In this document: positions 1 through 51,754 of the stretch, in pieces | Layout: each line of letters starts with the position of its first letter | Numbering within the stretch: position 1 is the first letter of the stretch | Source: Myxococcales bacterium UBA1238 | GTDB lineage: Bacteria > Myxococcota_A > Bradymonadia > UBA7976 > UBA1532 | Assembly: GCA_002309015.1 (NCBI GenBank) | Contig: DBWM01000012.1 | Location: 16,638 to 80,637, forward strand | Length of the DNA: 64,000 bases | Direction: 5' to 3' | Program-made: the position numbers and the translations under genes | The notes under the pieces: model-generated | What the model was told of the DNA's origin: nothing | Seen by the model: the letters and a program-made list of their open reading frames with translations, nothing else | Databases searched by the model: none

Positions 1-187
1 AACTCTCCATTAGTGGGGTAAAAATTTGGCGCAACCTGCGCTTACCAAAAGCCGTCAAATCCTCTTCGAGCATTTCCAAGAAAACGGCGTGGATGCTATA
101 CACCGACCCCAAACGGTGATCCACCCTTTTCTGCTACGGGAAGGATTTTTCACAAAAAAACGCCGCCCACTATACACGAAAACGAAA

Positions 188-433
188 CTAAAAGGGAGTT
201 TTTTTCACACTCGCTTTGATTAAATCAATAAGATTTTTTTGGGGCATCAACTCCTGAAAGCGCAGCTCAGAGCGCATAATTACGTAATAAACCTCAGGTT
301 TTTGGAGCTGACCTTCCACTTTTTGCGTCTCGAGCTCGATCACCTTGCCCTTGGGGCGAGCCTCCGCATTCCAGGGCCAGCAAAGCATCAAAACCGCGCA
401 TAACCGTATAAAACTGTTCACCTTTTTCATCAT
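188..433 (-). CDS. small secreted protein in the GltF position of module A
   Basis: 81 aa from ATG 433, with AGGA about 8 nt upstream. The longer ORF to 574 would overlap the upstream TPR gene. Signal-like N-terminus MMKKVNSFIRLCAVLMLCWPWNAEA. The C-terminal QKNLIDLIKAS resembles RENFTPEMLKSA of the 45103..45378 protein. Lies 25 nt after the TPR lipoprotein gene. Confidence 0.55.
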   Translation of the reverse strand: MMKKVNSFIRLCAVLMLCWPWNAEARPKGKVIELETQKVEGQLQKPEVYYVIMRSELRFQELMPQKNLIDLIKASVKKTPF

Positions 434-458
434 TACGCAGTCCTTTCCCGAGCGATGT

Positions 459-2009
459 TCACGGCGTTTCTTCAGGCACCGACAGCAAATCCACATCTTC
501 GAACGGATCGAAATGCTCTCCTTCCGCAGGCACCGCGTCAACGCCAGATGGTGCATCGGAAGGCTTTTCCTCATCCTGTGCGCCTGCTGAAATCGGGATC
601 AAATCATCAAAATTGAGCTCATCCATTTCAGGCGCCTCGTTTGAGTTCTTCCCCGGATTTCCGGCCTCAGGCTTCAGCGGTCCTTCAGCCGACTCCCCTT
701 CACTCAGGGTTTTTCCTTCGGGATTTTCGGTCAAAGGCTGCGAAACAGAATCTGAATTTTCTGTTTCACCCTGTTCCTCCGAACGCTCAGCGGGCACCAA
801 ATTCTCAGGCTTCTTGGGCTGATTCTTGAGCTGCTCTGCCTTTTTTTCCGCCGCCACCAGTTTTTTTTGAGCCCCTGCAAGGTATTTTTCAACCTGAGGA
901 GGCGCATTTTGGGTTTCCGACAGATAATGGTTAAACCCTTCGATGGCCAGTTTTAAACGTTCCACGTCGCTTAAATGAGGCAGCTGCGCATCCAGATAAA
1001 GCACCGCCAGGTTGTAATCCGCCTCAGCGCCCAAAGCAGAACCGAGCGATTTTGCATGTAAAAATGCTTCTTCCGACTCCTTATACTTCCCTTGAGCTTT
1101 TAGGCAATTTCCCAAATTCACCCAGGCTTCAAACAAGGTTGGCCAACGCGCCAATGCTTCTCTGAAACGAACCTCGGCATCCGTATCATCACCCAATTTG
1201 TGATATAACAGCCCAAGTTCATTCAGGATTTCAGGCTGAGCCCCCAGCGGAAACGCGACGGCCTGCTCAAACATCGCGAGCGCCGTCGATTCTTTGCCCA
1301 ACTCCAGCTCTGCCAATCCTTTTCTTCCCAAGGCTTCAGGATTCTCACTATCCAGCGCGAGCACATCTTCAGCAGCCTGCCGGCTCATCTCAAACTTGCC
1401 CTGTTCATAAAACGCGGCCGACAAATTCAAATGCGCGCCCAGATTGCGCTCATCTTTTCGCAGAATTTGCTTGCTGTCGCCCACCACCTCAGCCGCATGG
1501 CCAGATTCATATAAAAGCACCGCATTGCGCGCATTGCGCAAATCGAGATCCTCCGGATCCTGCGCCAGGCAAGACTCCGCAAAACGCCGCGCTGCCTCAA
1601 ATCCCTCCTGGCGCATGATCAAAGAGGCGTTGGCCATCACCGCAGGTCCAAAATCCGGCCGCACCGACAAAGCCGCTTCATAGGACTTCCGCGCAGCCTC
1701 CCAATGCCCCGCCTGCTCCTCTAAAAGCCCCAAATTATAATGCGATTCCGACAAGCGCGATTCCATTTCCAGCGATTCGCGAAAATGAGCGGCCGCCGAA
1801 TCGAGAGCCCCCTTTTGAACCTCGTCGAGCCCCTGCGCGAGCAAGGCCACCGCCTGCTGATTCAGCGGCCCGCCCTCCAGCGTTTTCGCTTCCATCACGG
1901 GAATCGGCGTCAATTCATCTTCCGCAACCGGCTCAAAGAGCAAGTTTTCCTGCTGCGCGCCGCACCCCCAAAAAGCCATCCACAAAATCGACCAGGCCCA
2001 GATCTTCAT
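459..2009 (-). CDS. TPR-repeat lipoprotein with acidic disordered tail (GltE/AglT-like, module A)
   Basis: 516-aa ORF. Lipobox-like MKIWAWSILWMAFWGC. Repeated TPR-type helices (AxxxYxxAL, NLG patterns). Long Glu/Pro/Ser-rich C-terminus. Its ATG overlaps the upstream stop as ATGA (2006..2009). Confidence 0.85.
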   Translation of the reverse strand: MKIWAWSILWMAFWGCGAQQENLLFEPVAEDELTPIPVMEAKTLEGGPLNQQAVALLAQGLDEVQKGALDSAAAHFRESLEMESRLSESHYNLGLLEEQAGHWEAARKSYEAALSVRPDFGPAVMANASLIMRQEGFEAARRFAESCLAQDPEDLDLRNARNAVLLYESGHAAEVVGDSKQILRKDERNLGAHLNLSAAFYEQGKFEMSRQAAEDVLALDSENPEALGRKGLAELELGKESTALAMFEQAVAFPLGAQPEILNELGLLYHKLGDDTDAEVRFREALARWPTLFEAWVNLGNCLKAQGKYKESEEAFLHAKSLGSALGAEADYNLAVLYLDAQLPHLSDVERLKLAIEGFNHYLSETQNAPPQVEKYLAGAQKKLVAAEKKAEQLKNQPKKPENLVPAERSEEQGETENSDSVSQPLTENPEGKTLSEGESAEGPLKPEAGNPGKNSNEAPEMDELNFDDLIPISAGAQDEEKPSDAPSGVDAVPAEGEHFDPFEDVDLLSVPEETP

Positions 2010-5000
2010 GGCGTCCCTCCTTGCTCCGAAGGCGCCGGACGCCCATCGGCAGAGGCCTCTTGCTCAGCAGAATCTCCTTTGTTTTTGGCCGGTTGCAGCT
2101 CAGCATCCGGCGATGCAGATTCCGACGCCGGCGTTGTTGATTCAGGCCCTTCCGCTGCAGATTGAGCCTCTTCAGCTGCAGAATCCTCTGCATCGGCTCC
2201 ATCGTCCTGGTTCAGAGAAGGCTTTATAAAATAAGCGCCGGCCAGCAAACGCTTGGTCGCAAGCGAATGCTCCTCTACAAACACGGGATAAGTTTTTGAA
2301 TCATATTTATTAAGCGCTTCAAGACTGCGCTTCGTCCATTCGTCCCGAATCCTGGCTTTGCTCGCCAGCTGGAGCACCTCGCGATAATGCTTTTGAGCCT
2401 CATCTTCGAGCGGGATGGCCACTTCTTCCAGCTGGCTGCGATACATATCCTCCATCTCTTCCGTAAAGCTTGAAGGGATTTCGGCCTCAAAGAGCGCTTC
2501 CGCAAAATACTGATATAAATATCCTTCCCTGTAACCCGCCGCCAGACTCCAGTGAGGACTCAAATAACGCTGTACATCGTGATAGCGCCGAATCAACTCC
2601 GGCATCTGTTTTTGCATCTTTTGCAGCGTGCGCCCCTGATTATCCACAGATCCTGAGAGTTTTGTGCGCGTAAAGGCTTCAAAATCCTTTTCGATTTGAT
2701 CAAAAAGAGCTTCCGCAGCATAAGCCGCAGAGGGTGATCCCAATGGCAAGCCTCGCCGCTGAAATTCATCCAGCAGAAGCTGACGCGTTTGGGCAGCCGC
2801 ACTGAGTCGCTTTGCCTGACGCTGCAATTTCACCGTTCGGGCCAAAACCTCGATATAAAGCGCATTGGGCTCCCGCGCCTGACTGTTCACCGACTGCACC
2901 GTGTTCTTTTTATATCGCTTTAAGAACGTCTCACAAATCCGCAATTCATTAGATAAATCATTTACTTTTCGGTAAACATCTGCACTTCGATAAAATGTTT
3001 CTGCAGTATCCGACCGGGATGGAAAAAGCTCCGCATAGCGCTCGTAATTTGCCGCGGCTCTTCCATATTCCTGATTATATTCAAGATCTTCCGCAGCCCG
3101 ATACAGCGCATCTGCCCTCAGCTGCGAATCCTTGTATTTGTCGACCAGGCTCAGGAAGCTTTTGACCGCCAAATCATAATCATAAAATCGTTCTGCATTG
3201 ACCCCCAGCCGAAACAGCGCTTCCGGCGCCCTCGCGCTGTCGGGATGTTCCGTAAACACGCGCCTGAACATACGGGCGGCCGACTCAAACCGGCGCGTCT
3301 GCTCGTACGCCACGCCCGCATTAAACAGCGCGCGATCCGCATATTTGGTCCCCGGATCCTCCTCCAGGAGCCGCAAATATTCGGCCGCAGCCTCCTCATA
3401 TTTCTCTTCTTTAAAGAGCTTTGAAGCCAGCTTAAAAATCGCGCCCACCTTCAAACCGGCTATCTCGGCCTTAAACTGCTCATCTCCGATGCCCATCTCG
3501 TCCAGCAGGCCGCTCCATTTGCTCATGCCCTCCCAATCCTGGACCAGCCGATAAGTCTCAAAGCCTTCGTTGGCTGCAATGCTCGCCAGCTCATCCGAAG
3601 GCGCTTCGCGAATCATGCGCTCAAACCATTGCCGGGCTTCCGCAAAGTGATGATATGAGAGATACACTTCACCGATTTTAAACATCACAAATACGCGCCT
3701 GCGAGGATCATCGGCGCTGTTCATCTGCGCATCCACATACGCCTGGCGATCGCTCTGAAGTTCTTGCACCAGAACGGGAATCGGTTCTTCAGGTATCTCG
3801 ATGCGCCGCTCTTCACCCTGCCCTTCTTCACCCTCTTCCGACGAAGCGACCTTGACTTCAGGTGCGACCCATGGCTGATCAAAAAAGGTCGGCTTCGAAG
3901 CGAGTAAACCTTTTTGAATCTGTTCCCGAATCAGATTTTCGCGCGCCAGTATCAACGAATACGCGGCATTTTCCCTATATTCATCATGAGTTGCATCATC
4001 TCGTACCAGGGTATACTGCTCTATCGCATCTTCAAAATGGAATGAGTAATAGAGCGTGTCCGCATAGTAAAACCGAAAGTCATAAGCCTGCTTGGCCTGA
4101 GGATAAAACGTTAAAAAATTCTTATAGCTCCGGGCTGCTCTCTCAAAGGCTGCAATGGTCTCTTCCTCTGTCATTTGAGATCGCATGCTCTGTGCCCTCA
4201 GGTGAAGGTAGTTTGCTGCTTCCGCCAAAGCATCTTCCAGTCGATGTTTTGTGCGTGAAATCAAGGCCTTATCACCCGCATTGGCCTTATACCAAGCGCT
4301 GTTTTCGCCATAGAGATCATACAGCCTTTCTTTTTCCTGAATCACATCATCCGTGCGTTGCAAACGGCCATACGCTTCAAACAGTTTAAAGTGAATCTCC
4401 GGATGCCGCGGATGTGTGGGAAAAAGAGCCTGTACATAGCGGATCACATCTATCGATTGCTCATATTTTCCAGTGCTTAACAACACATCAATGAGTCTGA
4501 ATAAGACATCTGTTTCATAGGCATGGCCTGTGTTGATGTATTGTTTTACGCGAGGCAATCCCGCATCCGCATCGGGCAGACCGTCCCCATCCCAATCCTC
4601 CTCCTGAACAGCGATCGCCAGATATTGAATCGCTTCATCGCGCGTTTGCAGGTCCTTACCCGATTTTTCGAGTTCCTCACCATATTGCAGCAAATGATGG
4701 AACCCAGCGATCGCATCGGGATAGCGATCGAGCAAATAATAAGTCCAGGCCAGTTTATAGAGAGCGCTCGAATAGACCGCGCTGTCCTGATATTCGCAGG
4801 CATGCTCGTAGGCAGTCGCAGCTTCCTTGAACTTATTCTCCGCAAAATAATACTCACCGAGTCGCATCCAGGATTCCGAAATATAAGGACTTTCCGGATA
4901 TTTTTCGATGAGGCGGGCAAAGCGGTCTTTCGCTTCCTGTTCGCGCTGCATGATCAGCAGGCAATAGCCGCTCAAATAATAAGCACCATCGTTTTGAGCA

Positions 5001-5560
5001 TATTGGGGCCATTGCCGGATCAAGCGATCAAAGGTCTCAATGGTTTGAGAATAATCCTTAACAATTTCATCGGGTTCTTCATCTTCAGATGCGTTTTCAA
5101 GCATCTTTTCCTGCTGCTCTTTGGCCAGGTTATAGTTGTCTTCAGTTCTGTCGAAATACAGATCAGCCAGGCGAAAGAGCGCATCGGGTGTATAAACATC
5201 TCTATCGGGATAACGCTCAATAAACGCTTCGAAAATTTGAATGGTCTTTTCGCGCTGAACGCGTAACTCGGCTTCCCACAAACGAAATCGTTCTTCTTCC
5301 TTGGCTGCCAGTGTGCGCTGTTTTCTTTGAAAACTGTAATAAACGGTTCGGTTTAACGCCTGTTTAAAATCTGACGTCTCCTGGCGATAGAGCTCCAGTT
5401 CAGCGTTCAAATTCTTCCAGATTTCAGCGGAATGCTTATCAGGAGAGGAATGAGATGCTTCCTCTGCAACCACCGGAGGCGGTTCATCCCCCTCAGCCCA
5501 GGCCTGAGCGAGCGTTTGCCATATCAAGCATAACCCTGCGACTGCAAAGATTTTTTTCAA
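2006..5560 (-). CDS. very large secreted TPR protein (GltD/AgmU-like, module A)
   Basis: 1184-aa ORF. Signal peptide MKKIFAVAGLCLIWQTLAQAWA. TPR-like repeats throughout and an acidic low-complexity tail. TTG start overlaps the upstream stop (TTGA at 5557..5560). Confidence 0.85.
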   Translation of the reverse strand: MKKIFAVAGLCLIWQTLAQAWAEGDEPPPVVAEEASHSSPDKHSAEIWKNLNAELELYRQETSDFKQALNRTVYYSFQRKQRTLAAKEEERFRLWEAELRVQREKTIQIFEAFIERYPDRDVYTPDALFRLADLYFDRTEDNYNLAKEQQEKMLENASEDEEPDEIVKDYSQTIETFDRLIRQWPQYAQNDGAYYLSGYCLLIMQREQEAKDRFARLIEKYPESPYISESWMRLGEYYFAENKFKEAATAYEHACEYQDSAVYSSALYKLAWTYYLLDRYPDAIAGFHHLLQYGEELEKSGKDLQTRDEAIQYLAIAVQEEDWDGDGLPDADAGLPRVKQYINTGHAYETDVLFRLIDVLLSTGKYEQSIDVIRYVQALFPTHPRHPEIHFKLFEAYGRLQRTDDVIQEKERLYDLYGENSAWYKANAGDKALISRTKHRLEDALAEAANYLHLRAQSMRSQMTEEETIAAFERAARSYKNFLTFYPQAKQAYDFRFYYADTLYYSFHFEDAIEQYTLVRDDATHDEYRENAAYSLILARENLIREQIQKGLLASKPTFFDQPWVAPEVKVASSEEGEEGQGEERRIEIPEEPIPVLVQELQSDRQAYVDAQMNSADDPRRRVFVMFKIGEVYLSYHHFAEARQWFERMIREAPSDELASIAANEGFETYRLVQDWEGMSKWSGLLDEMGIGDEQFKAEIAGLKVGAIFKLASKLFKEEKYEEAAAEYLRLLEEDPGTKYADRALFNAGVAYEQTRRFESAARMFRRVFTEHPDSARAPEALFRLGVNAERFYDYDLAVKSFLSLVDKYKDSQLRADALYRAAEDLEYNQEYGRAAANYERYAELFPSRSDTAETFYRSADVYRKVNDLSNELRICETFLKRYKKNTVQSVNSQAREPNALYIEVLARTVKLQRQAKRLSAAAQTRQLLLDEFQRRGLPLGSPSAAYAAEALFDQIEKDFEAFTRTKLSGSVDNQGRTLQKMQKQMPELIRRYHDVQRYLSPHWSLAAGYREGYLYQYFAEALFEAEIPSSFTEEMEDMYRSQLEEVAIPLEDEAQKHYREVLQLASKARIRDEWTKRSLEALNKYDSKTYPVFVEEHSLATKRLLAGAYFIKPSLNQDDGADAEDSAAEEAQSAAEGPESTTPASESASPDAELQPAKNKGDSAEQEASADGRPAPSEQGGTP

Positions 5561-7785
5561 CGCAACTCCTCAAGCGACAAGGCATTATCGGGATCCTGAA
5601 CCCGCATCTGATCGTGAGCCGCACCGTTGCCCTGCAAAGTCTCTTTGCGTTTCCACGCCCCCCAAAGCAAAGTGTAACGCGCCTCCAGAGCAATGTTATC
5701 GAGCAACGCAATCGCATCATTAAAACTGCGATCCGCGCTTTTTGCTTCGAGAGCCAGGACGCGCTCCTGCAAAGCTTTGAGCGCCTTTTTGGAGCGCTCT
5801 GCCGTTTTCCGTTCGCGCGCGATTTCAAGCGCAATCCCGAGCATTCTTGACTCTGCGATCTCAGAAATCTGCTTTAAAATCGAGTAATTGCGCGCATCCA
5901 AGCGGTCAAGTCTGGCCAACCATTCGGGTGCAGGCGCTCCTTGCATCTGGCTCAGCAGGCGCAATTCTGCATTCAAAGCATCCTGATAACGCCGCAACAG
6001 TTTTTCATCCGAGACCGCCACAGAATCTTTCTCACCAAAACTCAGCCTCTGTTCTACAGATTCGGCGCGCAATGTCTTCACTCGCTCCAGCAATTGTTTT
6101 TGCTCCGCAGAGGCCGCTTTCAGTTCGGCCATCCATTGCGACAACGTCTCGCGCGCATTCCCTGTAGCTCCGCGAATGGTCTGCTCCAAAACCGTCAACT
6201 GAGCCTCTAACCCCGTGATTTCACGCTCAATTTCAAAAGCGCTGTCATCAATCTTATTGAGATTCGCTTCCAGCTGCTTTTCGCGCGAACGCCAGAGCTC
6301 AGCGGTTTCAGGGATTTGACTCAGACGGCCATTCAGCTTTTGCCGCTGCGCGATCAGTCGCTCCAACGCCTGAGAATGAAACTCTCTTTCCTGGTTTTCG
6401 ATGAGCATTCGACGCAGCTGCATCGAGCGGATCAACGCTTCCTGGGCATCGACAAAGCCAACGTACAAATCTTCAAAAAAGCGCACCCGGCTGGGGAGTT
6501 GCACCACGCGCTCCAGATGCGAAAGTGCATAATCGGTCCCCACCACTTCGCGCTGAATGACGCCCAATTCATCCTCAAGCTTTTGCAGGCGCTCAAAATC
6601 TTCGTCGGGCTGTATAAAATGGACCACCTGCTCTGGCCGAATGGGCAGGCGCCAGCGATCCGGGCTTTCGTTTTGCCAGGCCCGCTGCCGTTTTTCTTCC
6701 TCAAAAGCCTCAGTCATGCGCTGCAAATAGCCATCAAATTCCTCAGGCAGCGCGCTCATATAGGCTTCCGCCTGCTCCAGATCCGACCGCATAAACAACA
6801 GGCGACCGCGCATCACCCGCAACTCAGGATCGATGTGATCCAACTCCGCGCTGTTCATCCAAATATCGAGTCGAATCAAGGCCTTGGCATAATCGCCTTC
6901 ACGAATCGCGAGCCAGACATGCTCGTATTGCGTCTCATCAAAATGCAGCGAATCGTAGGGAATGGAAGCGTAGGCCTGAACGGATTCCTGAAACCGGTTT
7001 TGCTCATAATAGAGACGCCCCAGAGCGAGATATGCAAGATCCCGGATTTCTTGATCTTCTGGTTTTAAAGCGTCGACTTCCGCGCAATGCTGAAAGCGCT
7101 CCAGCGCCGCTTCCCAATGCTGCTCACAAAGCTCAATGACCCCTAAAAAATAGCGCGCTTTGGCAAAAGTCCTGTGCTCCACCGGAATGGTCGAAAACAG
7201 CGTTCTCGAAACGCCTAACTCCCCATGTTCATAGTAGAATTTGGCAACATCATAGAGCAGCTGAGGGTCCGTTTGGGGGTCAGATAAGAGTTGAGATGAG
7301 CGCTTTAAATGACCCCAGATCGCCTTTTCATCACCATTTTTTAACGAAAGCTCTAAAACGCGAGCTAAAGATTGTTTCTCGTATTCGCCACCCTGTTGCA
7401 GGGCTTTTTCAAAATATTTAAGTGCCGCACCGTAATTCGATACCTGGTAAAGAGATTCTGCCAAATAATATATAGCCTCACTATATCCCTGAAGATGATC
7501 CGCATCCGGTGCTTCCAACGGCCCCAGAAGCGCCATCGCAGCATGCTCATAATCACCTTTCATAAAGGCCAGCTGGCCTTCGGTCAGGCGCTTCACCCAT
7601 GCATTTTTTTGCGCAAAAACGGCGGGATCCAGGCAATGCCGCTCCACTTCCTGCAACAGTTTTTCGATGGCAACGATTTCGGTTTCAAAATGACGCTCCA
7701 CTGTCGAAGGCTCCCCGGCCCAACCCCCGGTCGAACTCAAAAAAAGCCCCCAAAACAGCAGGCAGCGCTCAAGCTTTTTGCTCAC
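5557..7785 (-). CDS. secreted TPR plus coiled-coil protein (GltC-like position, module A)
   Basis: 742-aa ORF. Signal-like MSKKLERCLLFWGLFLSSTGGWA. The TPR N-terminal half shares the motif AYASIPYDS...W...KAL with YYDSIPLDS...W...KAL of the 50002..51561 protein. The C-terminal half is heptad-rich. GTG start overlaps the upstream stop (GTGA at 7782..7785). Confidence 0.8.
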   Translation of the reverse strand: MSKKLERCLLFWGLFLSSTGGWAGEPSTVERHFETEIVAIEKLLQEVERHCLDPAVFAQKNAWVKRLTEGQLAFMKGDYEHAAMALLGPLEAPDADHLQGYSEAIYYLAESLYQVSNYGAALKYFEKALQQGGEYEKQSLARVLELSLKNGDEKAIWGHLKRSSQLLSDPQTDPQLLYDVAKFYYEHGELGVSRTLFSTIPVEHRTFAKARYFLGVIELCEQHWEAALERFQHCAEVDALKPEDQEIRDLAYLALGRLYYEQNRFQESVQAYASIPYDSLHFDETQYEHVWLAIREGDYAKALIRLDIWMNSAELDHIDPELRVMRGRLLFMRSDLEQAEAYMSALPEEFDGYLQRMTEAFEEEKRQRAWQNESPDRWRLPIRPEQVVHFIQPDEDFERLQKLEDELGVIQREVVGTDYALSHLERVVQLPSRVRFFEDLYVGFVDAQEALIRSMQLRRMLIENQEREFHSQALERLIAQRQKLNGRLSQIPETAELWRSREKQLEANLNKIDDSAFEIEREITGLEAQLTVLEQTIRGATGNARETLSQWMAELKAASAEQKQLLERVKTLRAESVEQRLSFGEKDSVAVSDEKLLRRYQDALNAELRLLSQMQGAPAPEWLARLDRLDARNYSILKQISEIAESRMLGIALEIARERKTAERSKKALKALQERVLALEAKSADRSFNDAIALLDNIALEARYTLLWGAWKRKETLQGNGAAHDQMRVQDPDNALSLEELR

Positions 7786-8444
7786 TCAGCGCCCCCCATT
7801 TCTTTCTGAAAGCTCTCAGCGCCAATGTATTTCAGCTCAAAACGCACTTTGGGGCGCTCTTTTAAATCTTTCATCAGGCCGCCCTGATCGAAGCCGATCG
7901 CCCGGATTTCCATATGGCGTCCATCTTCAACGCGAAAATCGTAGGAAGCGACCACGTTGAACACGTAATTCTTTAAATACGAAAACACACCAAAACCGCG
8001 CCCCCGATAAACCAGGCGCACCGAAAGGGTGTAATTTCCGGGCGAAAAATGCCCCATATAGCTTTGGATTTCGTCCTTCTCGCTCAAACGCCCGTCGCGA
8101 TCGTCCAGACTCCAAGGATCCATCTTGGTCAGCGTATGCGTCACGCTCTCGAGGCGAAACACAGCACCGATGTCGTTTACATGCACCACGCGAACATAGG
8201 CCCCCGCCAGATTCCCAGACAAAACCGTACTTTGCAGATAAGCCACGCGCGCTTTTGAACGAAAAACCTGCTCCTTTAAATCGTTGACCTGAGCTTCCAG
8301 CGCATCGATTTGAGCTTTATAAACATCTGGCTGCATGTCCGATTCAGAAACGCCATCGTGCTTTTCTTCCGAAGCCGGTTCTGCCCAAATTGCAAAAGTC
8401 CATAACCATGTAAAAATAAAGCAAAAAAAGCGCATAAACTTCAT
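7782..8444 (-). CDS. secreted coiled-coil plus beta-rich protein of unknown function, first gene of module A
   Basis: Internal ATG at 8444, preceded by GAGAGG, gives 220 aa starting MKFMRFFCFIFTWLWTFAIWA (signal peptide). It continues with the coiled coil YKAQIDALEAQVNDLKEQVFRSKARVAYLQ and then a beta-strand-like region. The 274-aa ORF-track start adds a non-signal leader. Confidence 0.7.
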   Translation of the reverse strand: MKFMRFFCFIFTWLWTFAIWAEPASEEKHDGVSESDMQPDVYKAQIDALEAQVNDLKEQVFRSKARVAYLQSTVLSGNLAGAYVRVVHVNDIGAVFRLESVTHTLTKMDPWSLDDRDGRLSEKDEIQSYMGHFSPGNYTLSVRLVYRGRGFGVFSYLKNYVFNVVASYDFRVEDGRHMEIRAIGFDQGGLMKDLKERPKVRFELKYIGAESFQKEMGGAE

Positions 8445-8459
8445 CCTCTCATTGTTGCA

Positions 8460-8488
8460 CATATAAGTTACAACAAAACGCGCAGCAA
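8460..8488 (-). promoter_or_regulatory. candidate sigma70-type promoter for module A
   Basis: Read on the minus strand: TTGCTG, 17-nt spacer, TATATG. Lies about 15-20 nt upstream of the ATG at 8444, in the 94-nt gap after obg. Confidence 0.25.
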
Positions 8489-8538
8489 AAACGAGCATAC
8501 GCAATTGAGGAGAAAATGGGGGAAGAAAAAGGAAGGAA

Positions 8539-9802
<1,264 letters not shown>

Positions 9803-9824
9803 GTTGTCCTCCGCTCACGCCCAA

Positions 9825-10136: not shown

Positions 10137-10212
10137 GACGTGTCCTGCAGGTAAATGAGCCACAAATCTGGCTACTTGAGGGCGAAAACTTTACGTCAGC
10201 CCTCAAAAATTG

Positions 10213-11250: not shown

Positions 11251-11282
11251 TCCATTGTTCTCGATGCTTAAAAAACGAGGCG

Positions 11283-13079: not shown

Positions 13080-13081
13080 TT

Positions 13082-14158: not shown

Positions 14159-14213
14159 GGCTTCATGCCACAAGAAAAAGTTCTACGCCAGAACGCGCCC
14201 ATTTTCATTCCAC

Positions 14214-18397: not shown

Positions 18398-18427
18398 ATT
18401 TTCTCCAATAGAATTAATGGGTTAAAC

Positions 18428-21088: not shown

Positions 21089-21090
21089 CA

Positions 21091-21121: not shown

Positions 21122-21133
21122 GAGATTCAAACG

Positions 21134-43192: not shown

Positions 43193-45025
43193 TTATTCCG
43201 CCGTGAAGGTGAAGGGGTAGTTGACGGTCACGCTGCCGCCACCCTTGGGCTCGGGGAACTGCCAGGATTTGACCTGGGTACGCAAGCATTGTTCCACGTT
43301 GGCGTTCTTCATGGTGGATTCGGGGATTTCTACGCGGAGCACCTTACCGTTGGGACCGATGGTGAACTTGACGACGATCTTACCGGCCAGGTCGCGCTTT
43401 TGTTGCAACTCTTTGTTGTAGCAGTTACGCGTTGCGTTGGCGTGCTTCTGAACCACACGACGAATCTGATCGGGTGACAACGACCCCTGGACGGTGGGTT
43501 TACCGGGCACAAATTTGGGACCGCTGCCGGTTTTATGCTTGAGCTGTGTGTTTCCGTATCCCGTTCCGGTTCCCGATCCGCCGCGTCCGTGCGTACCGAT
43601 GGCACCGATACCGATGGAGTTGGTCCCCAAACCGCCTCCACCAAAGCCGGATCCCGCCATGCCGAGTCCGCCAAAGCCGCCGGATTCTCCGATTTGATTG
43701 CCAAACATGTTGCCGAATGCGTTGACGGCGTCGGAGCCGATGGTACGGTCACCGCTGCCCCAAATCGCCGAAAGCTGACCTTCGATGTTGGCCACAGCCG
43801 CGCTCGCCGATGCGATGGCGGCGGTCTTCATCTGCTGCTTGGCGAATTGGATCTCCTGGTTGTTGGCCGGGCCGGCAATACCTGCGCGCTTTCCGGTATC
43901 GGGCGCATCCTTTTTGCCCATCTTCCCTTCTTCACCTTTGGCCGCCGCCGCGACCTCCGGTTCGGGTTCTTTTTCAAGCTCATTCAGCAAATCGGTGAGT
44001 TTCTGACTCTTTTCGCGCAGCTCCTCTTCGGGAATCACCAGGAATTCCACGAAGCGGTCGTTCAGATTGAACCCATCGATCTTCAGGCTGTCCGCTTCTT
44101 TGGGCACGCTGAGCACGATGCCGAAAAACAGCGCGTGCATCAGGATCGCGATGCAGAGATATTTGAAGAAGGTCAGATCGAGGCTCTTTAAAAAGCTCGT
44201 CTGCCCCATCGGAGGCGGAGGCGGCACCGAGTTGACGAGCAGCGTGATGTTCCCAAAATGCAGACGGCAACGCGTGTTCGGCAGCATCTTGAGGGTACGG
44301 GAACCATTACGGGATTCCCCCATCCGACCGCTCGAACGCAATTCGTCGATGGTCTCCACCTTGCCGTCGCTCATCACCTCGCCCGCGATCTTATCGGGCA
44401 CGTGAACCGCCATCTGGCGGCCATCGGTTACGGCAAGCGTAAAAGGTGTTTGCGGCAAAAAAGACGCATCGATGAACTGATCGATCTGCTTGGCCAGCTT
44501 TTTGCCCTGAGAAGTCTTCATTAACTGCTCAGGCACTTCGCCCACCACAAAATCATGTGCAGACGAATAATGCTGCACGTCGAGCACCGTCGATTCCCAC
44601 AGCGTTAAAATCTCAAGCGTTCGCGCATTGGGATTTCTGGGATCGACCTCCTCGTCGAACAGCGGCGCATTGACCGTCTTTCGCTCATTCGGCGATTTCT
44701 TGCGTCCAGGTTGTCCGGCAATCGTCATCACCACCTTGACGTTACCGAACGCCAGCTGATCGCCCGACTTGATGGCCCGCTTTGAGGTGACCCGCTCGCC
44801 GTTCACGAACGTACCACCCGCGCTCCCTAAATCGACCAACAAAACCGTACGCTCATCCTGCACTTCGATCATCGCGTGGACGCGCGCGACGCTCTCATCG
44901 TCGAGCCGCAAGTGCGAGGTGGTGAGCTTACCGATCTTGATCGTCTTCTCGGCCAGAACTTCAGTTCGCTGAAGCTGACCCCCCTGATAAATTTCAAATT
45001 TGATCGGAGTCTTCGCGCTGTCCAT
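43193..45025 (-). CDS. FHA + TM + Gly-rich linker + TonB_C protein (GltG/PglI-like)
   Basis: ATG 45025 with GGGAGA RBS. FHA core IKIGKLTTSHLRLDDESVARVHAMIEV...LLVDLGSAGGTFVNGERV. TM FFKYLCIAILMHALFFGIVLSV. Charged coil, then a Gly-rich tract GGFGGLGMAGSGFGGGGLG. C-terminal TonB-type VVKFTIGPNGKVLRVEI...VTVNYPFTF. Confidence 0.85.
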   Translation of the reverse strand: MDSAKTPIKFEIYQGGQLQRTEVLAEKTIKIGKLTTSHLRLDDESVARVHAMIEVQDERTVLLVDLGSAGGTFVNGERVTSKRAIKSGDQLAFGNVKVVMTIAGQPGRKKSPNERKTVNAPLFDEEVDPRNPNARTLEILTLWESTVLDVQHYSSAHDFVVGEVPEQLMKTSQGKKLAKQIDQFIDASFLPQTPFTLAVTDGRQMAVHVPDKIAGEVMSDGKVETIDELRSSGRMGESRNGSRTLKMLPNTRCRLHFGNITLLVNSVPPPPPMGQTSFLKSLDLTFFKYLCIAILMHALFFGIVLSVPKEADSLKIDGFNLNDRFVEFLVIPEEELREKSQKLTDLLNELEKEPEPEVAAAAKGEEGKMGKKDAPDTGKRAGIAGPANNQEIQFAKQQMKTAAIASASAAVANIEGQLSAIWGSGDRTIGSDAVNAFGNMFGNQIGESGGFGGLGMAGSGFGGGGLGTNSIGIGAIGTHGRGGSGTGTGYGNTQLKHKTGSGPKFVPGKPTVQGSLSPDQIRRVVQKHANATRNCYNKELQQKRDLAGKIVVKFTIGPNGKVLRVEIPESTMKNANVEQCLRTQVKSWQFPEPKGGGSVTVNYPFTFTAE

Positions 45026-45102
45026 GTCATCTCCCTGCCGAGCAGCACAGGCTTTTGAGGCTCGAAGCAAAGCCGCTCAGTTGCCCGGGCGGCTGTCACA
45101 AA

Positions 45103-45378
45103 TCAAATATCTTGAGCTGATTTCAACATCTCGGGAGTAAAGTTTTCCCGAATGTGAATCAGACTTGAGTACGTATGTCCCCGGTGCCCCGTCAGGTGAT
45201 CGCCATCCGGACGCATGATTTCGCCGTTCAGCTCATCACCGTCCATGTTCATTTCCTGATTTGCCTGATAGCAAATATTGGGATCATTGGGATCCGGGAA
45301 CGTCCCTTCAGGGCAAGCCGCCCATCCAACAACAGGAGTTACCACAAAAGCTAACATCAAGGCCCATTTATTCATCAT
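45103..45378 (-). CDS. small secreted protein (GltF position, module B)
   Basis: About 90 aa. GGAGG lies 3-6 nt before the tandem ATGs (45378, 45375). Signal MNKWALMLAFVVTPVVGWAAC (possible lipobox). C-terminal IRENFTPEMLKSAQ motif shared with the 188..433 protein. Confidence 0.65.
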   Translation of the reverse strand: MMNKWALMLAFVVTPVVGWAACPEGTFPDPNDPNICYQANQEMNMDGDELNGEIMRPDGDHLTGHRGHTYSSLIHIRENFTPEMLKSAQDI

Positions 45379-45500
45379 CAACCTCCGTGCAACGTCGTTA
45401 CAGTATCATCGACCTTCGCAAGCTGTCCAGCGGTCGATTGAAGCCATCCTTCAGGCCCCAAAATCTGCTTTTACCTCTCGCATCGAGGAGCAAAAAACTT

Positions 45501-46823
45501 TTATTCTGAGCCAGCTTCCGCGCCACCGGATTCCGCGCCACCGGATTCCGCACCACCAGACGGATTCGAGGCCGCTTCAGCTTCCATTTGCTTGCGCATC
45601 GCCTCGTCGTCCGCGAGATCCTGAATCATGTAACCGCACATTTCGATGCGCTCACGCAACATCTTTTTCATGCTCGAATCGCTGGTGAGGGTCTGCGCCT
45701 TTTTATAAAGATCCATCGCTTCCTGAGGCTTACTCAAAAAATCCTGATACAGCAAGCCCAGGTTGAAATTCGCCGCAAAATGTTGTGGATCTTTTGCGAG
45801 GACCGCTTTGTAACCGCTCTCCGCTTCAGGATAATTCTCCATCGCGCGCGCCGTCACGGCCTTCGAGAGCATCGCGTCCAGATTCTCGGGCTCCACCTTC
45901 AGCGCAGTTTCGAAGGCGTTGTAGGCAAACTCGTAATCGCGGTGACCGTAAGCGAGCGACCCCGCATTCAAAAGCGCCGGAACGTAGTTGGGATCAGCCT
46001 CGATCGCCTTGCTAAACTCTTGAAATGCAAACGAAAATTGTTCCTGAGCCAAAAAGACCAGGCCGTGCATATTGTGCAGCGAAGCGAGCGAGTTATCGAA
46101 CGAAAGCCCCGATCGGCAGACCATCTCCGCCAGATCGTAGCGCTTCATGTCGTAATAGATTTTGGCCAAAACCTCGTACGCCTGAGCGTTCTGGCTGTCG
46201 CCGGTCAACGCCTTGCGCACCTTTTCAACCGCCGAGGGGTAATCCTTCTGAGCGCGCGCAAACAGCGCCTGATTCAGGTTGGCAGCGCCCGATAACGGCT
46301 GAACCTGCAAGGCTTTTTCAAAATATTTTTTAGCCTCGGCCTCATTGCCTTCCGCAAGGTAATGCGCACCGATCGCCGCCAGACCGTCACCGAACTCTTT
46401 GCCCTTCTCGGACGATTTTTCAAAATACTCGGCAGCGTCCTTCCATTTGCCCGCAGAAGCGCTCAAAATCCCCAGATTATACCAAGCCTCACCTACCTCG
46501 GGATTCTCTTTGACGATCGCCTTCAGGATAGACGCCGCATCCTCATCGCGACCTTCCTTATGGGCCGTCATCGCCGCTCTGAATTGCGTATGCAGGCCCG
46601 CTTCTTCCTTCGACATCGCGTTGAGGGCGGAATCCGTGGAAGGCGCGGTGGAACCCACCGAAACAGCTGGGTTTTCGGTGCCGTCCTCAGGCGGTGTCAC
46701 GGTCGTTTGAGCACCACCGCAGGCGTTCAGGCTAAGGGCTGCAAGCGTCCCCAAAGAAACGCGGCCAGCTGCAAATTTCACGCTCTGTAGCCATCGATTC
46801 TGGTGAAAATGCATCGCGATCAC
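45501..46823 (-). CDS. TPR-repeat lipoprotein with acidic repeat tail (GltE/AglT-like, module B)
   Basis: 440 aa. Lipobox LSLNAC. About 8 TPR units. C-terminal GGAESGGAESGGAEAGSE. GTG start overlaps the upstream stop (GTGA); the alternative is ATG 46814. Confidence 0.85.
   Translation of the reverse strand: MIAMHFHQNRWLQSVKFAAGRVSLGTLAALSLNACGGAQTTVTPPEDGTENPAVSVGSTAPSTDSALNAMSKEEAGLHTQFRAAMTAHKEGRDEDAASILKAIVKENPEVGEAWYNLGILSASAGKWKDAAEYFEKSSEKGKEFGDGLAAIGAHYLAEGNEAEAKKYFEKALQVQPLSGAANLNQALFARAQKDYPSAVEKVRKALTGDSQNAQAYEVLAKIYYDMKRYDLAEMVCRSGLSFDNSLASLHNMHGLVFLAQEQFSFAFQEFSKAIEADPNYVPALLNAGSLAYGHRDYEFAYNAFETALKVEPENLDAMLSKAVTARAMENYPEAESGYKAVLAKDPQHFAANFNLGLLYQDFLSKPQEAMDLYKKAQTLTSDSSMKKMLRERIEMCGYMIQDLADDEAMRKQMEAEAASNPSGGAESGGAESGGAEAGSE
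45516..45560. repeat. 3 x 15-bp tandem repeat inside the gltE-like 3' end
   Basis: TTCCGCGCCACCGGA twice, then TTCCGCACCACCAGA. Encodes the SGGAE repeats. Confidence 0.9.
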
Positions 46824-49800: not shown

Positions 49801-50014
49801 TTGCATAAAGCTCCGACAAACGGAAATAGAGCTCAGGCTTCTTGGGATCCGTTTCGGGCGTCATCTGGATCAGGCGTTGAAGGCCGTTAAAGACCTCCTC
49901 ATTTTTCTGCTCAAGCTGAGCGCTCTGCTGAGCATTCGCCGCCCCACAAAAAACTGCAGATGCGAAAACCGCGCGCATTACGCCGCGCCATGCACCCCTT
50001 CTCATCGACCGCAC
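46820..50014 (-). CDS. very large secreted TPR protein (GltD/AgmU-like, module B)
   Basis: 1064-aa ORF. Signal ...MRAVFASAVFCGAANA. TPR-like repeats throughout, plus a Lys-rich insert KDKKKGGKKKDDKKDD. The in-frame ATG at 50005 forms an ATGA overlap with the upstream stop and may be the true start. Confidence 0.85.
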   Translation of the reverse strand: MRSMRRGAWRGVMRAVFASAVFCGAANAQQSAQLEQKNEEVFNGLQRLIQMTPETDPKKPELYFRLSELYAKRAENEEIKASDEHTACLERSMDDDAALAKCEERYNARLEQIKKTDGAKSQEIYRYIAQQYPNYENIDRVLFALGFDYQQKGETENAQKFYVFLIQNHPDSPHIPDALYNLGEIYFDAGDIPNATVFYRKVTTDYRESDLYNLALHKLGWCYYNKGQYQDALDTFVEVINHANKLNSQGGKARLTRKKEATRDLVTVYVNTDNNNPAKTIAFFKSIAPNDYLALSEQLAIKYIDTGQLAQSNAMYRELIKLYPNTYKAMTFQIKIVSNSTTIGQQSLAVNDVKELAKLWRTAKELPDATPAQVSQDQEVIESLVRKMAEEQYALAEKNKSKKEYQNALDLYVDYLDIFPDSPHLAIALYNTANLAFRLERWELAAQTYGRVLKSDPDEETKKEAAYNMVTSYQNILIDQQNAEIAAAQKDKKKGGKKKDDKKDDGLLSEGAEATIPEPKELSEVQKSYIEATEVYSQYVPDGDDLIEIKYSVAKLYYDNNHFDKAIPIFKEISEKHPNHAQAVFAANLLLDTYNLTKDYDSFNAQVETFLPIYTPSRDAQFNKELNSYKRQANFKRCGAFEGRHDYLEAARCYYRYAHHFKNSEFVDKAYYNSAANYERMRNIDRAIAVRMEMIQEVSGSELVPKALFQIAANKEDLATYSEASEAYEVYAANFPDKEEAQKALERAAGFRKGLGQYAKAIEDSRAYISLVGSDKAKAAEAHFNIGQVMELQEKWYQACDHYAEFLRKYKKYATPDLVLAVYAHYGNAFHQRGGPKNEKASREQYDAAYNYYKSLNNDERQKLGKRGREAISEARFKQAEIAYEAFRRNPLKLPKVRGLEKYIKDMQEGIVNRNKAANAVDVMYREVLEIGAINWSMAASVRIGQMQQQIAQDIYNLEAPREFSQFEEAAEAFKNEMVKLAEQPTTLAINGYENCLDIARQQKWANKWSEIAGKELAQLKPEVYRYSPDILTKPVHFSPDRVTRPYIAALPIDEAAVTQEAAE

Positions 50015-51561: not shown

Positions 51562-51754
51562 ATTCCCCTCCAAGGCGAATTGTGAGAGCCGTTCAAAAGG
51601 TACCCCCAAAATGAGAAGTTTCGTATACCTTTGCCATCCGCAGAACGCAAACCAAATCAGGCACAAAAGCGGATGAACGCATCTCTTGCTCAAATGGCGC
51701 CAACCGCGTAAGGTAAATCGATTGTTTGAACTGCGCTCGCTGCTGGAGGCAACC

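Follow-up and report, generated by a model that had tools for sequence, protein, structure and literature searches.

Gene content and layout of module A

Close to its left end, the window (the whole 64,000-nt stretch of DNA analysed) carries five co-directional minus-strand open reading frames (ORFs), referred to here as module A (A0 to A4), all of which are present at the positions given in the earlier note. The array and its immediate flanks are as follows.

8539..9528, minus strand: obg (Pfam GTP1_OBG), conserved upstream neighbour, context outside the machine
8445..8538, minus strand: obg-A0 spacer, 94 nt, in which no promoter or terminator consensus was found
7782..8444, minus strand: A0, secreted protein, first gene of the module (ORF; signal peptide, long alpha-helix, beta-sandwich domain)
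5557..7785, minus strand: A1, GltC-like periplasmic TPR protein, 742 aa, with signal peptide (NCBIfam GltC, BLASTP)
2006..5560, minus strand: A2, GltD-like giant TPR protein, 1184 aa (signal peptide, acidic disordered tail; BLASTP against B2)
459..2009, minus strand: A3, GltE-like TPR lipoprotein, 516 aa, with an acidic tail of ~120 aa (NCBIfam GltE, BLASTP)
188..433, minus strand: A4, GltF-like small secreted protein, 81 aa (C-terminal motifs in common with B4/GltF)
1..187, minus strand: spacer between A4 and a motor gene (gene calls on a longer contig)

The three large junctions, described previously as 4-nt stop/start overlaps, read exactly so in the sequence: GTGA at 7782-7785 between A0 and A1 (GAG-TGA/GTG-AGC), TTGA at 5557-5560 between A1 and A2 (CGT-TGA/TTG-AAA), and ATGA at 2006-2009 between A2 and A3 (CCA-TGA/ATG-AAG). 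The placement of the array 94 nt after obg, within a co-directional run of about 20 kb, likewise holds: obg terminates at 8539, A0 begins at 8444, and the minus-strand gene run spans 188 to 19882, including glmU, glmS, a pcrA/uvrD-type helicase gene, mtnA, rplU, rpmA and obg. The candidate promoter that had been proposed at 8460-8488 was not recovered by a consensus scan of the obg-A0 spacer, and a search for a terminator-like site after obg found none. A terminator-like hairpin is located at 41-29, in the spacer between A4 and a MotA/TolQ-like gene whose ATG falls 5 nt past the left end of the window (position 12014 of the longer contig, L001).

The proteins of module A

As had been recognized, a secreted protein combining a helix and a beta-sandwich heads the module, but the length of 220 aa first given to it is probably slightly too great; the public gene model starts 9 nt further in, at ATG 8435 (217 aa), which is better spaced from the GAGAGG ribosome-binding site and is likely the true start. 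None of the 57 A0 homologues carries a Pfam domain. The AlphaFold2 model of A0 (mean pLDDT of 81) consists of a helix (residues 36-73) and a beta-sandwich (79-204), and a Foldseek search with this model against the PDB returned nothing at E<1e-3.

In A1, the N-terminal ~400 aa are homologous to GltC, while the C-terminal ~340 aa are unlike either B1 or GltC. The protein scores 65 bits on the NCBIfam GltC model (NF033756, cut-off 450 bits), matching only profile positions 112-380 of 622; since this match covers the N-terminal TPR part only, the C-terminal region of GltC, modelled as contacting the porins, has no counterpart in A1. By eye, the C-terminal ~340 aa of A1 are heptad-rich and coiled-coil-like. 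A2, the presumed central periplasmic scaffold, contains TPR_6/YbgF-type repeats, and no GltD model was among the NCBIfam matches of either A2 or B2. A3 reaches 58 bits on the GltE model (NF033758, cut-off 225) over profile positions 72-400 of 411, and obtains a slightly better score from the PrsT TPR model; its lipobox-like site reads FWGC, that of its orthologue at locus L005 VAAC. A4, which is conserved in 54 related loci, obtains 16.7 bits on the CglF/GltF model (NF033764, cut-off 90), a model that is matched by 4 of 6 A4 orthologues.

Relationship between module A and module B

The same window contains a further Glt-like module, module B, which served as comparator.

43193..51564, minus strand: module B (NCBIfam Glt models; Pfam FHA and TonB_C)
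50002..51564, minus strand: GltC (B1), NCBIfam GltC 393 bits
46820..50014, minus strand: GltD (B2), BLASTP with A2
45501..46823, minus strand: GltE (B3), NCBIfam GltE 120 bits
45103..45381, minus strand: GltF (B4), CglF/GltF 47 bits
43193..45070, minus strand: GltG, with FHA and TonB_C domains, NCBIfam GltG 364 bits

The proposal that module A is a paralogous Glt-like module repeating the C-D-E-F order of module B was borne out by pairwise BLASTP, the D and C pairs being far more alike than generic TPR proteins. A2 and B2 align colinearly over ~1000 aa (23% identity, E 2e-44), and A1 and B1 over ~400 aa (23%, E 9e-22) that include the SIPxDS...W...KAL block; the A3/B3 match is weaker (25% over 257 aa, E 2e-10). 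No BLAST match was found between A4 and B4, which nevertheless do have in common the C-terminal motif that had been noticed in these small secreted proteins, G-x-[IV]-x-[KR]-P-[ED] ... [KR]-x-[SN]-F-x-P-x-[IM]-[IL]-K-[ST], and the A4 family aligned to B4 by hhalign with an E value of 4.4e-4. The two modules are thus homologous, though distantly, and for the F pair this is apparent at the motif and profile level only. On the NCBIfam GltC/GltE/GltF/GltG models, module B scores 393/120/47/364 bits, against 65/58/17/140 bits for module A.

The locus beyond the left end of the window

A Logan contig (SRR5324856_82, here L001) matches the window identically over the compared segments (window positions 1-500, corresponding to L001 11510-12009, and a second 1-kb stretch) and continues leftwards past the window end. 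Its gene order is C-D-E-F-MotA/TolQ-ExbD-ExbD-G, followed by genes for a small secreted protein, a candidate barrel, an OPX protein, a Wzc-type PCP and a glycosyltransferase. The gene adjoining A4 is therefore not the G-like gene expected at the window end but a MotA/TolQ/ExbB-family motor gene of AglR type (Pfam MotA_ExbB, 87 bits), and after it come two ExbD/TolR genes (Pfam ExbD in both), so that the left neighbour does not speak against a Glt-like module, as a non-Glt-like gene there would have done. Of the two ExbD/TolR-like proteins, one retains the transmembrane Asp and the other has Asn at this place, a dichotomy also seen in L020, the one other locus aligned.

The suggestion that a leftward extension might reveal FHA/TonB_C and barrel genes held in part: a TonB_C gene of GltG-like type and a barrel candidate are present, the N-terminal FHA domain is not. 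The G-like protein is laid out as an inner-membrane protein with an FHA-like cytoplasmic domain, one transmembrane helix, a low-complexity linker and an AgmX/PglI TonB-like C-terminal domain (105 bits on the AgmX/PglI model, cut-off 40); it scores 140 bits on GltG (NF033760, cut-off 650; profile positions 224-648). Pfam FHA gave no match in it, and the N-terminal FHA domain is also absent from five orthologues. Between this gene and the candidate barrel gene lies A9, a small secreted protein with two cysteines. The candidate outer-membrane beta-barrel (445 aa), whose gene abuts that of the OPX protein, has a signal-peptide-like N-terminus and a Tyr at its end; it gives weak EpsL/BBP2_2 matches and is 21% identical (E 2e-8) to what Archangium encodes in the place of WzpB, but a profile search of PDB sequences gave no match, nor was there a family match. 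The OPX protein is short (200 aa), comprises the Poly_export, SLBB and SLBB_2 domains only and, as in class 3, is without the outer-membrane-spanning Wza_C helix; M. xanthus WzaB (PDB 9N9A; PMC12819527) matches it at 169 bits with 50% identity across 164 aa, and E. coli Wza at ~61 bits. The Wzc-type PCP carries a tyrosine kinase as a fusion and ends in a Tyr-rich tail, the PCP-2A layout that has been reported for WzcB (PMC7310880). Homologues of GltA, B, H, K, I, J and CglB were found neither among the genes of the 30-kb contig nor in the window near module A, and no TolB or Pal domain occurs among the genes of the locus.

Correspondence with the G4 cluster of Myxococcus

Luciano et al. 2011 (PMC3169522) described in M. 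xanthus a glt-like cluster, 'G4', with MXAN_1922 as its gltD homologue, which sits between mglBA (MXAN_1925/1926) and wzpB/wzaB (MXAN_1916/1915). The locus compared was that of Archangium minus (L019), whose order, with unnamed genes given by protein length, is mglB-mglA-252-788-1097-434-89-453-cNMP-188-423-OPX. By tblastn, eight proteins match this locus in order: A0 (37% identity, to the 252-aa gene after mglA), C (26% over 585 aa, to the 788-aa TPR protein), D (33%, E 3e-157), E (29%, to the 434-aa TPR protein), F (43%, to the 89-aa gene), G (35%, E 2e-67), the barrel (21%) and OPX (47%). A ninth, A9, aligns with the 188-aa gene in multiple alignment only. The position of the D homologue can be equated with that of MXAN_1922, because the gene count from mglA (MXAN_1925, PMC4316618) to wzaB (MXAN_1915; PMC9603273) fits. 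A2 is predicted to group with MXAN_1922 from the synteny and from its identity to the Myxococcus/Archangium homologues, which is 33-34% as against 23% to B2.

By these sequence criteria, module A is an orthologue of the Myxococcus G4 cluster. All nine matching proteins, from A0 to OPX, are colinear in the two loci, and in both the G protein is without an N-terminal FHA domain. The differences are that three motor genes, absent from the Archangium locus, lie here between F and G; that rplU-rpmA-obg precede module A where mglBA do so in Archangium; that the genes next after the cluster here are those of a Wzc-type PCP and a glycosyltransferase; and that Archangium has an extra cNMP-binding gene. 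Since module A is colinear with the Archangium G4 locus, the A/B split would predate the divergence of these Myxococcota lineages. The earlier comparison of the A/B pair with the Glt/Nfs duplication is accordingly replaced: on sequence grounds, module B is the Glt/Nfs-type copy and module A, with its much lower Glt scores, an anciently diverged G4-type copy.

Conservation of the gene order in related loci

We compiled related loci from species-representative genomes, picked by similarity to A2 or A5; given this choice, the conservation that the census shows is that of this subfamily only. Nearly all of them have the order A0-C-D-E-F-(motor)-G-(A9)-barrel-OPX, which is kept in about 60 species-level genomes, and the fixed order of the module's proteins, with its continuation beyond the window counted in, extends over about 60-70 genomes. 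C-D-E-F-motor-G was found in 56 of 63 related loci, and the motor genes are missing from seven. In 57 of 61 loci an OPX gene follows the G-like gene at a distance of no more than 5 kb, four having none nearby. The A0-to-OPX block holds in 57/61 loci down to ~25-35% protein identity, while its outer flanks change (obg or mglBA upstream; Wzc, HSP70, Wzy or inositol phosphatase downstream). The position after rplU-rpmA-obg is no peculiarity of this window: among the 16 related loci with sufficient upstream sequence, 14 keep the rplU-rpmA-obg neighbourhood, with obg immediately upstream of A0.

Comparison with known envelope machines

All seven gene types of the 'core complex' of Luciano et al. 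2011 (gltC, gltD, gltE and gltG with aglR, aglQ and aglS in one locus; PMC3169522) are united here in one co-directional locus, which differs in also having A0, A9, the barrel/OPX pair and an F-like gene, a type that these authors class as a later, delta-proteobacterial addition. With the Agl-Glt machinery of M. xanthus (clusters G1/G2/M1), the locus has in common the motor type, the TonB-like transducer, the TPR scaffold proteins, including a GltD-type giant (A2), and the small F protein, whose motifs are C-terminal, where the AlphaFold model of Agl-Glt, which gives roles for GltC, D, E, F and G, puts the GltF elements binding GltC and GltG (PMC11761067). It differs in that GltA, B, H, K, I, J and CglB are absent, the C-like protein resembles GltC in the N-terminal TPR part only, the G-like protein is without the N-terminal FHA domain, which binds GltI, and the GltC, GltE, GltF and GltG equivalog scores all fall under their cut-offs. 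The contiguous nfsA-H set, with A, B and H barrels, is not found here either; the homologues in this locus are limited to the C to G types, A0 being a helix plus beta-sandwich and no barrel, and the G-like protein being without FHA.

Agl-Nfs transports the Exo polymer (Wartel et al. 2013, PMC3858216) and so offers a precedent for a polysaccharide cargo. In Agl-Nfs with the Exo (MASC) pathway, a Glt-like complex is functionally tied to a Wzx/Wzy-type pathway that has a short OPX protein and a barrel; the present locus likewise joins a Glt-like complex to a short OPX protein and a candidate barrel. In M. xanthus, however, nfs and exo are separate loci and Nfs borrows AglRQS, whereas here all three sets of genes (Glt-like, motor and export) form one unbroken stretch, and the OPX is of WzaB, not WzaS, type. 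The class-3 OPX/Wzp translocon WzaB-WzpB, whose barrel is an 18-stranded PgaA-like porin, shares the short OPX, a barrel-sized gene immediately upstream and a PCP-2A-type Wzc downstream, but the barrel candidate here shows only weak similarity (21%) to the product of the Archangium gene in the place of WzpB; the adjacent glt-like genes go unmentioned in the reports on WzaB-WzpB (PMC9603273, PMC12819527). Tol-Pal/TonB-ExbBD systems share the MotA/TolQ/ExbB channel, the ExbD/TolR partners, a TonB_C-like transducer and YbgF/CpoB-like TPR units; they differ in TolB, Pal and a TonB-dependent receptor, absent from this locus, which has instead two unlike ExbD-like subunits and giant TPR scaffolds.

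Proposed function and alternatives

By homology, window positions 188-8444 encode the periplasmic components, A0 and the GltC-, GltD-, GltE- and GltF-like proteins, of a G4-type Agl/Glt-like core complex. We favour, with a probability of about 0.6, the reading that the locus as a whole specifies a G4-type, Tol/TonB-like, proton-motive-force-driven trans-envelope complex probably coupled to polysaccharide export; the adjoining proton-driven motor and polysaccharide export pore hint that a secreted sugar polymer is handled, rather than motility powered. By analogy with Tol/TonB and the modelled Agl-Glt, the flow of protons through the motor would be used to do conformational work on the transducer, the GltG-like protein, whose periplasmic domain may dock onto the GltD-like TPR pillar. 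The GltE-like and GltF-like proteins would brace this pillar, and the GltC-like protein would connect it to an outer-membrane partner, here most likely the adjacent barrel/OPX export pore. Such a machine may assist, position or move secreted polysaccharide, in the way that Agl-Nfs acts on the Exo polymer of the spore coat. Against such a coupling it may be remarked that seven related loci are without motor genes and four without a nearby OPX, that the C-like protein has no equivalent of the C-terminal part of GltC, that the barrel candidate has neither a family nor a PDB sequence match, and that the conserved adjacency may be historical rather than functional; the M. xanthus mutants described below also count against it.

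It is possible, though on balance unlikely, that the G4-type complex is a Tol/TonB-like machine unrelated to its export neighbours, with a role for example in envelope integrity, protein or lipid transport, or development, the OPX/barrel adjacency being inherited gene order. The repeated YbgF/CpoB-type TPR units of the D-like protein and the 4/61 loci with no nearby OPX gene would suit this, as would the suggestion of Wartel et al. that other systems of the Agl-Glt/Nfs-like kind may carry proteins or lipids. In M. xanthus, moreover, a polar insertion in MXAN_1922 caused no appreciable gliding or twitching defect (PMC3169522), while in BPS-minus mutants, wzaB included, swarm spreading is severely compromised (PMC7310880); as the MXAN_1922 mutant is without the BPS-minus defects, BPS export under laboratory conditions can probably do without G4. 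Yet the A0-OPX block persists at ~25-35% protein identity while both flanks change, the wzaB-type gene of Myxococcus/Archangium stays at G4 with the rest of the BPS cluster ~1 Mb away (PMC7310880), and the locus has no TolB or Pal gene, all of which tell against this alternative.

A second gliding-motility or Nfs-type sporulation machine, arisen by a Glt/Nfs-like duplication, would also account for the C-D-E-F order shared with module B and nfsC-F, for the homology of every part to Glt components and for the attached Agl-type motor. We regard it as improbable, for the NCBIfam Glt equivalog scores lie far under the cut-offs and under those of module B, the lack of GltA, B, H, K, I, J and CglB homologues in the 30-kb contig and of an N-terminal FHA domain in the G-like protein tells against it, and disruption of the gltD homologue in the orthologous G4 cluster left motility unaffected (PMC3169522). 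The idea that there is no real module, the A/B likeness being the generic TPR similarity of unrelated periplasmic proteins, could draw on the modest A3/B3 match, the slightly better score of A3 on PrsT and the want of a BLAST match for A4/B4. It was rejected as wholly implausible in view of the colinear, full-length D/D alignment, the AgmX/PglI C-terminal domain of the G-like protein, which scores above its cut-off, the colinearity with Archangium, and the fixed order of the proteins in the census.

Module A and its relation to module B

The earlier note had described the genes at window 188-8444 (module A) as a second copy of the Glt-like gene set lying at 43193-51564 (module B). Its five minus-strand open reading frames were all recovered from the sequence, as follows:

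7782-8444, minus strand: A0, ORF for a secreted protein
5557-7785, minus strand: A1, GltC-like, 742 aa
2006-5560, minus strand: A2, GltD-like, 1184 aa
459-2009, minus strand: A3, GltE-like, 516 aa
188-433, minus strand: A4, GltF-like, 81 aa

At the three large junctions, start and stop overlap as GTGA, TTGA and ATGA, and 94 nt separate the obg stop from the A0 start, within a co-directional run of about 20 kb on the minus strand that extends to 19882 and carries glmU, glmS, a PcrA/UvrD-type helicase gene, an unidentified gene, a gene for an MJ0042 zinc-finger/TPR protein, mtnA, rplU, rpmA and obg. The candidate promoter proposed at 8460-8488 fell below the threshold of a consensus scan, which also gave no terminator-like site 3' of obg, and an Rfam search of the whole window returned no RNA family. 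The zinc-finger/TPR protein (598 aa; 11283-13079, minus strand), encoded five genes upstream of A0 and separated from it by mtnA, rplU, rpmA and obg, has an N-terminal MJ0042-type zinc finger and C-terminal TPR repeats; GltJ, too, opens with a zinc-finger domain. The run is headed by glmS and glmU (UDP-GlcNAc synthesis; 16568-19882, minus strand) and ends in the Glt-like/export locus; these two genes near a polysaccharide export cluster are probably housekeeping.

The leading gene had been read as encoding a 220-aa secreted coiled-coil/beta protein. The predicted structure (pLDDT 81) bears this out, with a signal peptide, a long helix and a beta-sandwich; the length is more likely 217 aa, since the public gene model has this size and a GAGAGG lies 9 nt upstream of the ATG at 8435, which is therefore the likelier start. 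A0 belongs to no Pfam or NCBIfam family and has no match among PDB sequences, while Foldseek returned generic beta-sandwich matches alone (E>2e-3, TM<0.5). A GltA/B-like barrel was considered for A0 and ruled out, the predicted model being a helix plus a beta-sandwich.

On the NCBIfam models, module B scores 393 bits for GltC, 120 for GltE, 47 for CglF/GltF and 364 for GltG, and it carries Pfam FHA and TonB_C domains; judged by these profiles, it is clearly of the Glt type. On the same models, module A reaches 65 bits for GltC (N-terminal part only), 58 for GltE and 17 for GltF. Pairwise alignment of the two sets gave the values below.

Pairwise comparison of the module A and module B proteins (B1 to B4, the GltC, GltD, GltE and GltF proteins of module B)
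A2/B2: 23% identity, colinear over about 1000 aa, E 2e-44
A1/B1: 23% identity, N-terminal ~400 aa, E 9e-22
A3/B3: 25% identity, 257 aa, E 2e-10
A4/B4: no BLAST match

The SIPxDS...W...KAL block noticed earlier in both modules lies inside the A1/B1 alignment. The shared C-terminal motif claimed for the small proteins escaped BLAST; nevertheless, two C-terminal motifs align A4 orthologues with B4, hhalign gives E 4.4e-4, and the GltF model is matched by four of six A4 orthologues. The resemblance between the modules is real, and the C and D proteins are more alike than random TPR proteins, well past generic TPR similarity.

The locus to the left of the window

The exact A3 protein is present on six public contigs. 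The datasets containing it number at least five independent ones (three Logan runs, one ENA assembly and NCBI GCA_016648615.1), so that the organism has been sampled repeatedly. One of the contigs, Logan SRR5324856_82 (L001; 30.9 kb), continues past the left end of the window and is identical to it over the compared segments (window 1-500 and another stretch of 1 kb); a base at window position x is found at 12010 - x on L001. Beyond A4, and after a spacer of 191 nt to the motor gene, L001 carries:

12014-12676: MotA/TolQ/ExbB-family protein (Pfam, 87 bits)
12717-13295: ExbD/TolR-like protein (Pfam ExbD)
13306-13899: second ExbD/TolR-like protein (Pfam ExbD)
14033-15427: GltG-like protein, 464 aa (GltG model, 140 bits, profile 224-648)
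15485-16015: secreted protein A9, 176 aa, with two invariant cysteines
16079-17416: candidate outer-membrane barrel, 445 aa, with weak EpsL/BBP2 matches and a Tyr at its end
17416-18018: polysaccharide export (OPX) protein, 200 aa, with Poly_export and SLBB domains only
17990-18979, opposite strand: NTP_transf_5 protein (Pfam)
19040-21322: Wzc-type co-polymerase (PCP) with fused kinase and Tyr-rich tail (NCBIfam, Pfam)
from 21341: glycosyltransferase (Pfam)

The G-like gene that had been expected at the window's left end is thus present, displaced behind a motor cassette; its product has an AgmX/PglI C-terminal domain (105 bits, cut-off 40) and is devoid of the N-terminal FHA domain that had been anticipated. 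For the beta-barrel gene also sought there, the 16079-17416 gene is a candidate, whose profile search against PDB sequences returned no match. The opposite-strand nucleotidyltransferase gene, which overlaps the end of the OPX gene, is kept in many related loci.

The two ExbD-like subunits differ at the transmembrane proton-binding position, one having PIMN (Asn) and the other SLMD (Asp), and the same split occurs in the one other locus aligned, that of a Bradymonadales MAG (L020). This pattern of residues suggests that the plug is a heterodimer of which only one subunit can be protonated. In a search for orthology to the M2 or AglRQS motors of M. xanthus, by MotA-like homologue search and alignment-based genome scan, the best matches were only Bradymonadia-type and Myxococcota loci. 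Module B (43193-51957, minus strand) is a bare gltC-D-E-F-G set flanked by RNase HII and a YraN-like ORF (assigned by eye only) on one side and by murB on the other, motor genes and GltA/B/H-type barrel genes being absent from these flanks. No further MotA or ExbD paralogue was detectable in the window with the module A motor proteins as queries; by analogy with AglRQS, which serves Glt and Nfs in M. xanthus, the motor beside module A might serve both modules.

Module A as the probable counterpart of the Myxococcus G4 cluster

Homologues of A2 in Myxococcus, Archangium and Persicimonas are 33-34% identical to it, and thus closer than B2. In Archangium minus, the gene order is mglB, mglA, 252, 788 (TPR), 1097 (D), 434 (TPR), 89 and 453 aa, a cNMP-binding gene, and 188, 423 and 204 aa (OPX), the 453-aa protein being GltG-like and again without an N-terminal FHA domain. 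By tblastn, eight proteins of the module A locus are colinear with this locus, with identities of 37% for A0, 26% for C, 33% for D (E 3e-157), 29% for E, 43% for F, 35% for G (E 2e-67), 21% for the barrel and 47% for OPX; A9 is a ninth counterpart, aligning with the 188-aa gene product in a multiple alignment only. In M. xanthus, MXAN_1925 and MXAN_1926 are MglA and MglB (PMC4316618), and MXAN_1916 and MXAN_1915 are WzpB and WzaB (PMC9603273, PMC12819527); the gene count between these markers puts the D homologue at MXAN_1922, which Luciano et al. named as the gltD homologue of their "G4" cluster (PMC3169522). Given this position and the colinearity with Archangium, module A is, with a probability of roughly 0.85 to 0.9, the orthologue of G4, a G4-type core complex. 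Module A with its attached motor fits the definition of a core complex by the same authors (gltC, D, E and G plus aglR, Q and S in one locus; PMC3169522). The reading of module A as a Glt-like paralogue of module B is therefore partly supported: the homology holds, and module A is of the anciently diverged G4 type, not a recent duplicate.

Glt-like core complexes are widespread, and only two derivatives have a known function, gliding (Glt) and spore-coat assembly (Nfs). Luciano et al. reported the functions of G4, G5 and M2 as unknown, a polar insertion in MXAN_1922 leaving motility unaffected (PMC3169522), and the G4 type has been without an assigned function since its naming in 2011. On the above identification, module A is another member of this already known, functionally uncharacterised kind.

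Conservation of the arrangement

Module proteins were compared by tblastn with 97 loci from species-representative genomes and assemblies; as these are relatives found with A2 or the MotA-like motor protein (A5), conservation was measured inside this subfamily only. Almost throughout, the genes follow the order A0-C-D-E-F-(MotA-ExbD-ExbD)-G-(A9)-barrel-OPX. Of the 61 non-redundant loci that extend at least 4 kb past the G-like gene, 57 have an OPX gene within 5 kb; the motor lies between E/F and G in 56 of 63 loci (absent in 7), and obg is directly upstream of A0 in 14/16. Median identities were 25% for C, 33% for D, 32% for E, 40% for F, 63% for the MotA-like protein, 35% for G and 47% for OPX. 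Pfam-annotated example loci agree on the arrangement while their outer flanks vary, and the cultured Lujinxingia vulgaris TMQ2 has it as well. Those relatives that carry a label are MAGs of Bradymonadia, Myxococcales or Myxococcota. The organism itself is without a close representative, its closest species-representative relative having a D-like protein only about 45-52% identical and the best D-like match standing at 52%.

The 14 of 16 loci with sufficient upstream sequence place the module directly after mtnA-rplU-rpmA-obg (window 8539-10163; L005-L018, L021, L022, L032), whereas in Archangium, and by inference in Myxococcus, it follows mglB-mglA; a small GTPase is the upstream neighbour in both settings. 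In one Myxococcales MAG (L022, 10001-14134), the D-like and E-like proteins are apparently fused (1377 aa), and this locus has no motor genes.

A possible link to polysaccharide export

At 50% identity over 164 aa (169 bits), the OPX protein matches M. xanthus WzaB, whose crystal structure is PDB 9N9A (PMC12819527); against E. coli Wza it scores about 61 bits. Islam et al. applied the term "orphan-like" to the wza gene mxan_1915, which lies 1 Mb away from the BPS cluster, and described WzcB as a PCP with fused kinase (PMC7310880), an architecture shared by the PCP in L001. The adjacent glt-like genes are unmentioned in that work and in the OPX papers. Neither MXAN_1917-1921, 1923 and 1924, nor a link of G4 to BPS, nor the conserved linkage of G4-type genes to WzaB-type export genes was found in the literature searched, the coverage of which was incomplete. 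The locus unites G4-type genes, their own motor and a complete-looking outer-membrane export set, an arrangement kept in about 60 Myxococcota genomes.

Homology, gene order and its conservation are the demonstrated part; the force path we infer from Tol/TonB biology, the AglR-GltG interaction (PMC3169522) and the AlphaFold model of Agl-Glt (PMC11761067). Proton flow through a MotA/TolQ-type pentamer and the ExbD-like heterodimer would act on the GltG-like transducer, whose TonB-like C-terminal domain and linker would dock on the GltD-like pillar, to which the GltE-like lipoprotein would be bound. The GltF-like peptide would bridge the GltG domain and a crevice of the GltC-like protein; the motifs common to A4 and B4 sit at the C-terminal end, and it is the C-terminal end of GltF that touches both in the Agl-Glt model (PMC11761067). 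The GltC-like protein would then tie the assembly to an outer-membrane partner. Unlike in Agl-Glt, the GltC region modelled as binding the GltA/B porins has no counterpart in A1, where the NCBIfam GltC match ends at profile position 380/622 and the C-terminal ~340 aa appear heptad-rich by eye. Glt porins are absent from the locus; its conserved neighbours, the barrel and OPX proteins, are the most evident candidate partners.

A precedent for such a link exists in Agl-Nfs, which acts on the Exo polymer (PMC3858216) and by analogy makes a connection between a Tol/TonB-like motor and class-3 OPX secretion plausible. A wider proposal, which we rate as less likely than not, is that G4-type complexes in general serve polysaccharide secretion of the WzaB/WzpB type (class-3 OPX plus porin) as dedicated partners driven by proton-motive force; coupling of module A itself to polysaccharide is slightly more probable, though still tentative. 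Motor, TonB-like GltG homologue and TPR scaffold would be physically coupled to OPX/porin, and the machine would gate, energise, position or move the exported polymer. Against this, gliding and twitching were normal in the MXAN_1922 polar mutant (PMC3169522), whereas BPS-minus strains are severely compromised in swarm spreading (PMC7310880); under laboratory conditions, BPS export can therefore probably proceed without G4, whose role in export, if any, would be modulatory, conditional or downstream of secretion. The four loci that lack a nearby OPX gene and the seven that lack a motor also speak against the link, as does the weak barrel assignment (21% identity to the Archangium gene, with the PDB profile search negative). 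Were the wider proposal true, the G4 cluster, uncharacterised since 2011, would gain a function, and the Bradymonadia-type locus, in which Glt-like, motor, porin, OPX, Wzc and glycosyltransferase genes adjoin one another, would be that machine in its undivided form. Coupling of a Tol/TonB-like motor to class-3 OPX secretion is testable in existing genetic systems. Should the export link be wrong, it would still stand that the two modules of the window differ in kind, B being of the Glt/Nfs type and A of the G4 type, with no recent duplication.

Other features of the window

A gene with a MopE motif and a sulfatase domain appears split into two adjacent same-strand ORFs at 37731-39851 (minus strand), of 422 aa (N-terminal part of the sulfatase profile) and 280 aa (C-terminal part); it could be frameshifted, a pseudogene or the product of faulty assembly. 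There is an intact MopE-sulfatase paralogue at 57845-60037 (plus strand) and another sulfatase-domain gene at 55626-57716 (minus strand); a similar gene adjoins the G4-type locus in L020. At 35603-37396 (plus strand), GC content dips to 0.435, compared with about 0.55 elsewhere, over a pilin-like protein (189 aa, N-terminal methylation motif) and a 393-aa ORF without a Pfam match; this stretch may be recently acquired DNA. Finally, a Fic/DOC-domain protein of 233 aa is encoded at 21134-21835 (plus strand).
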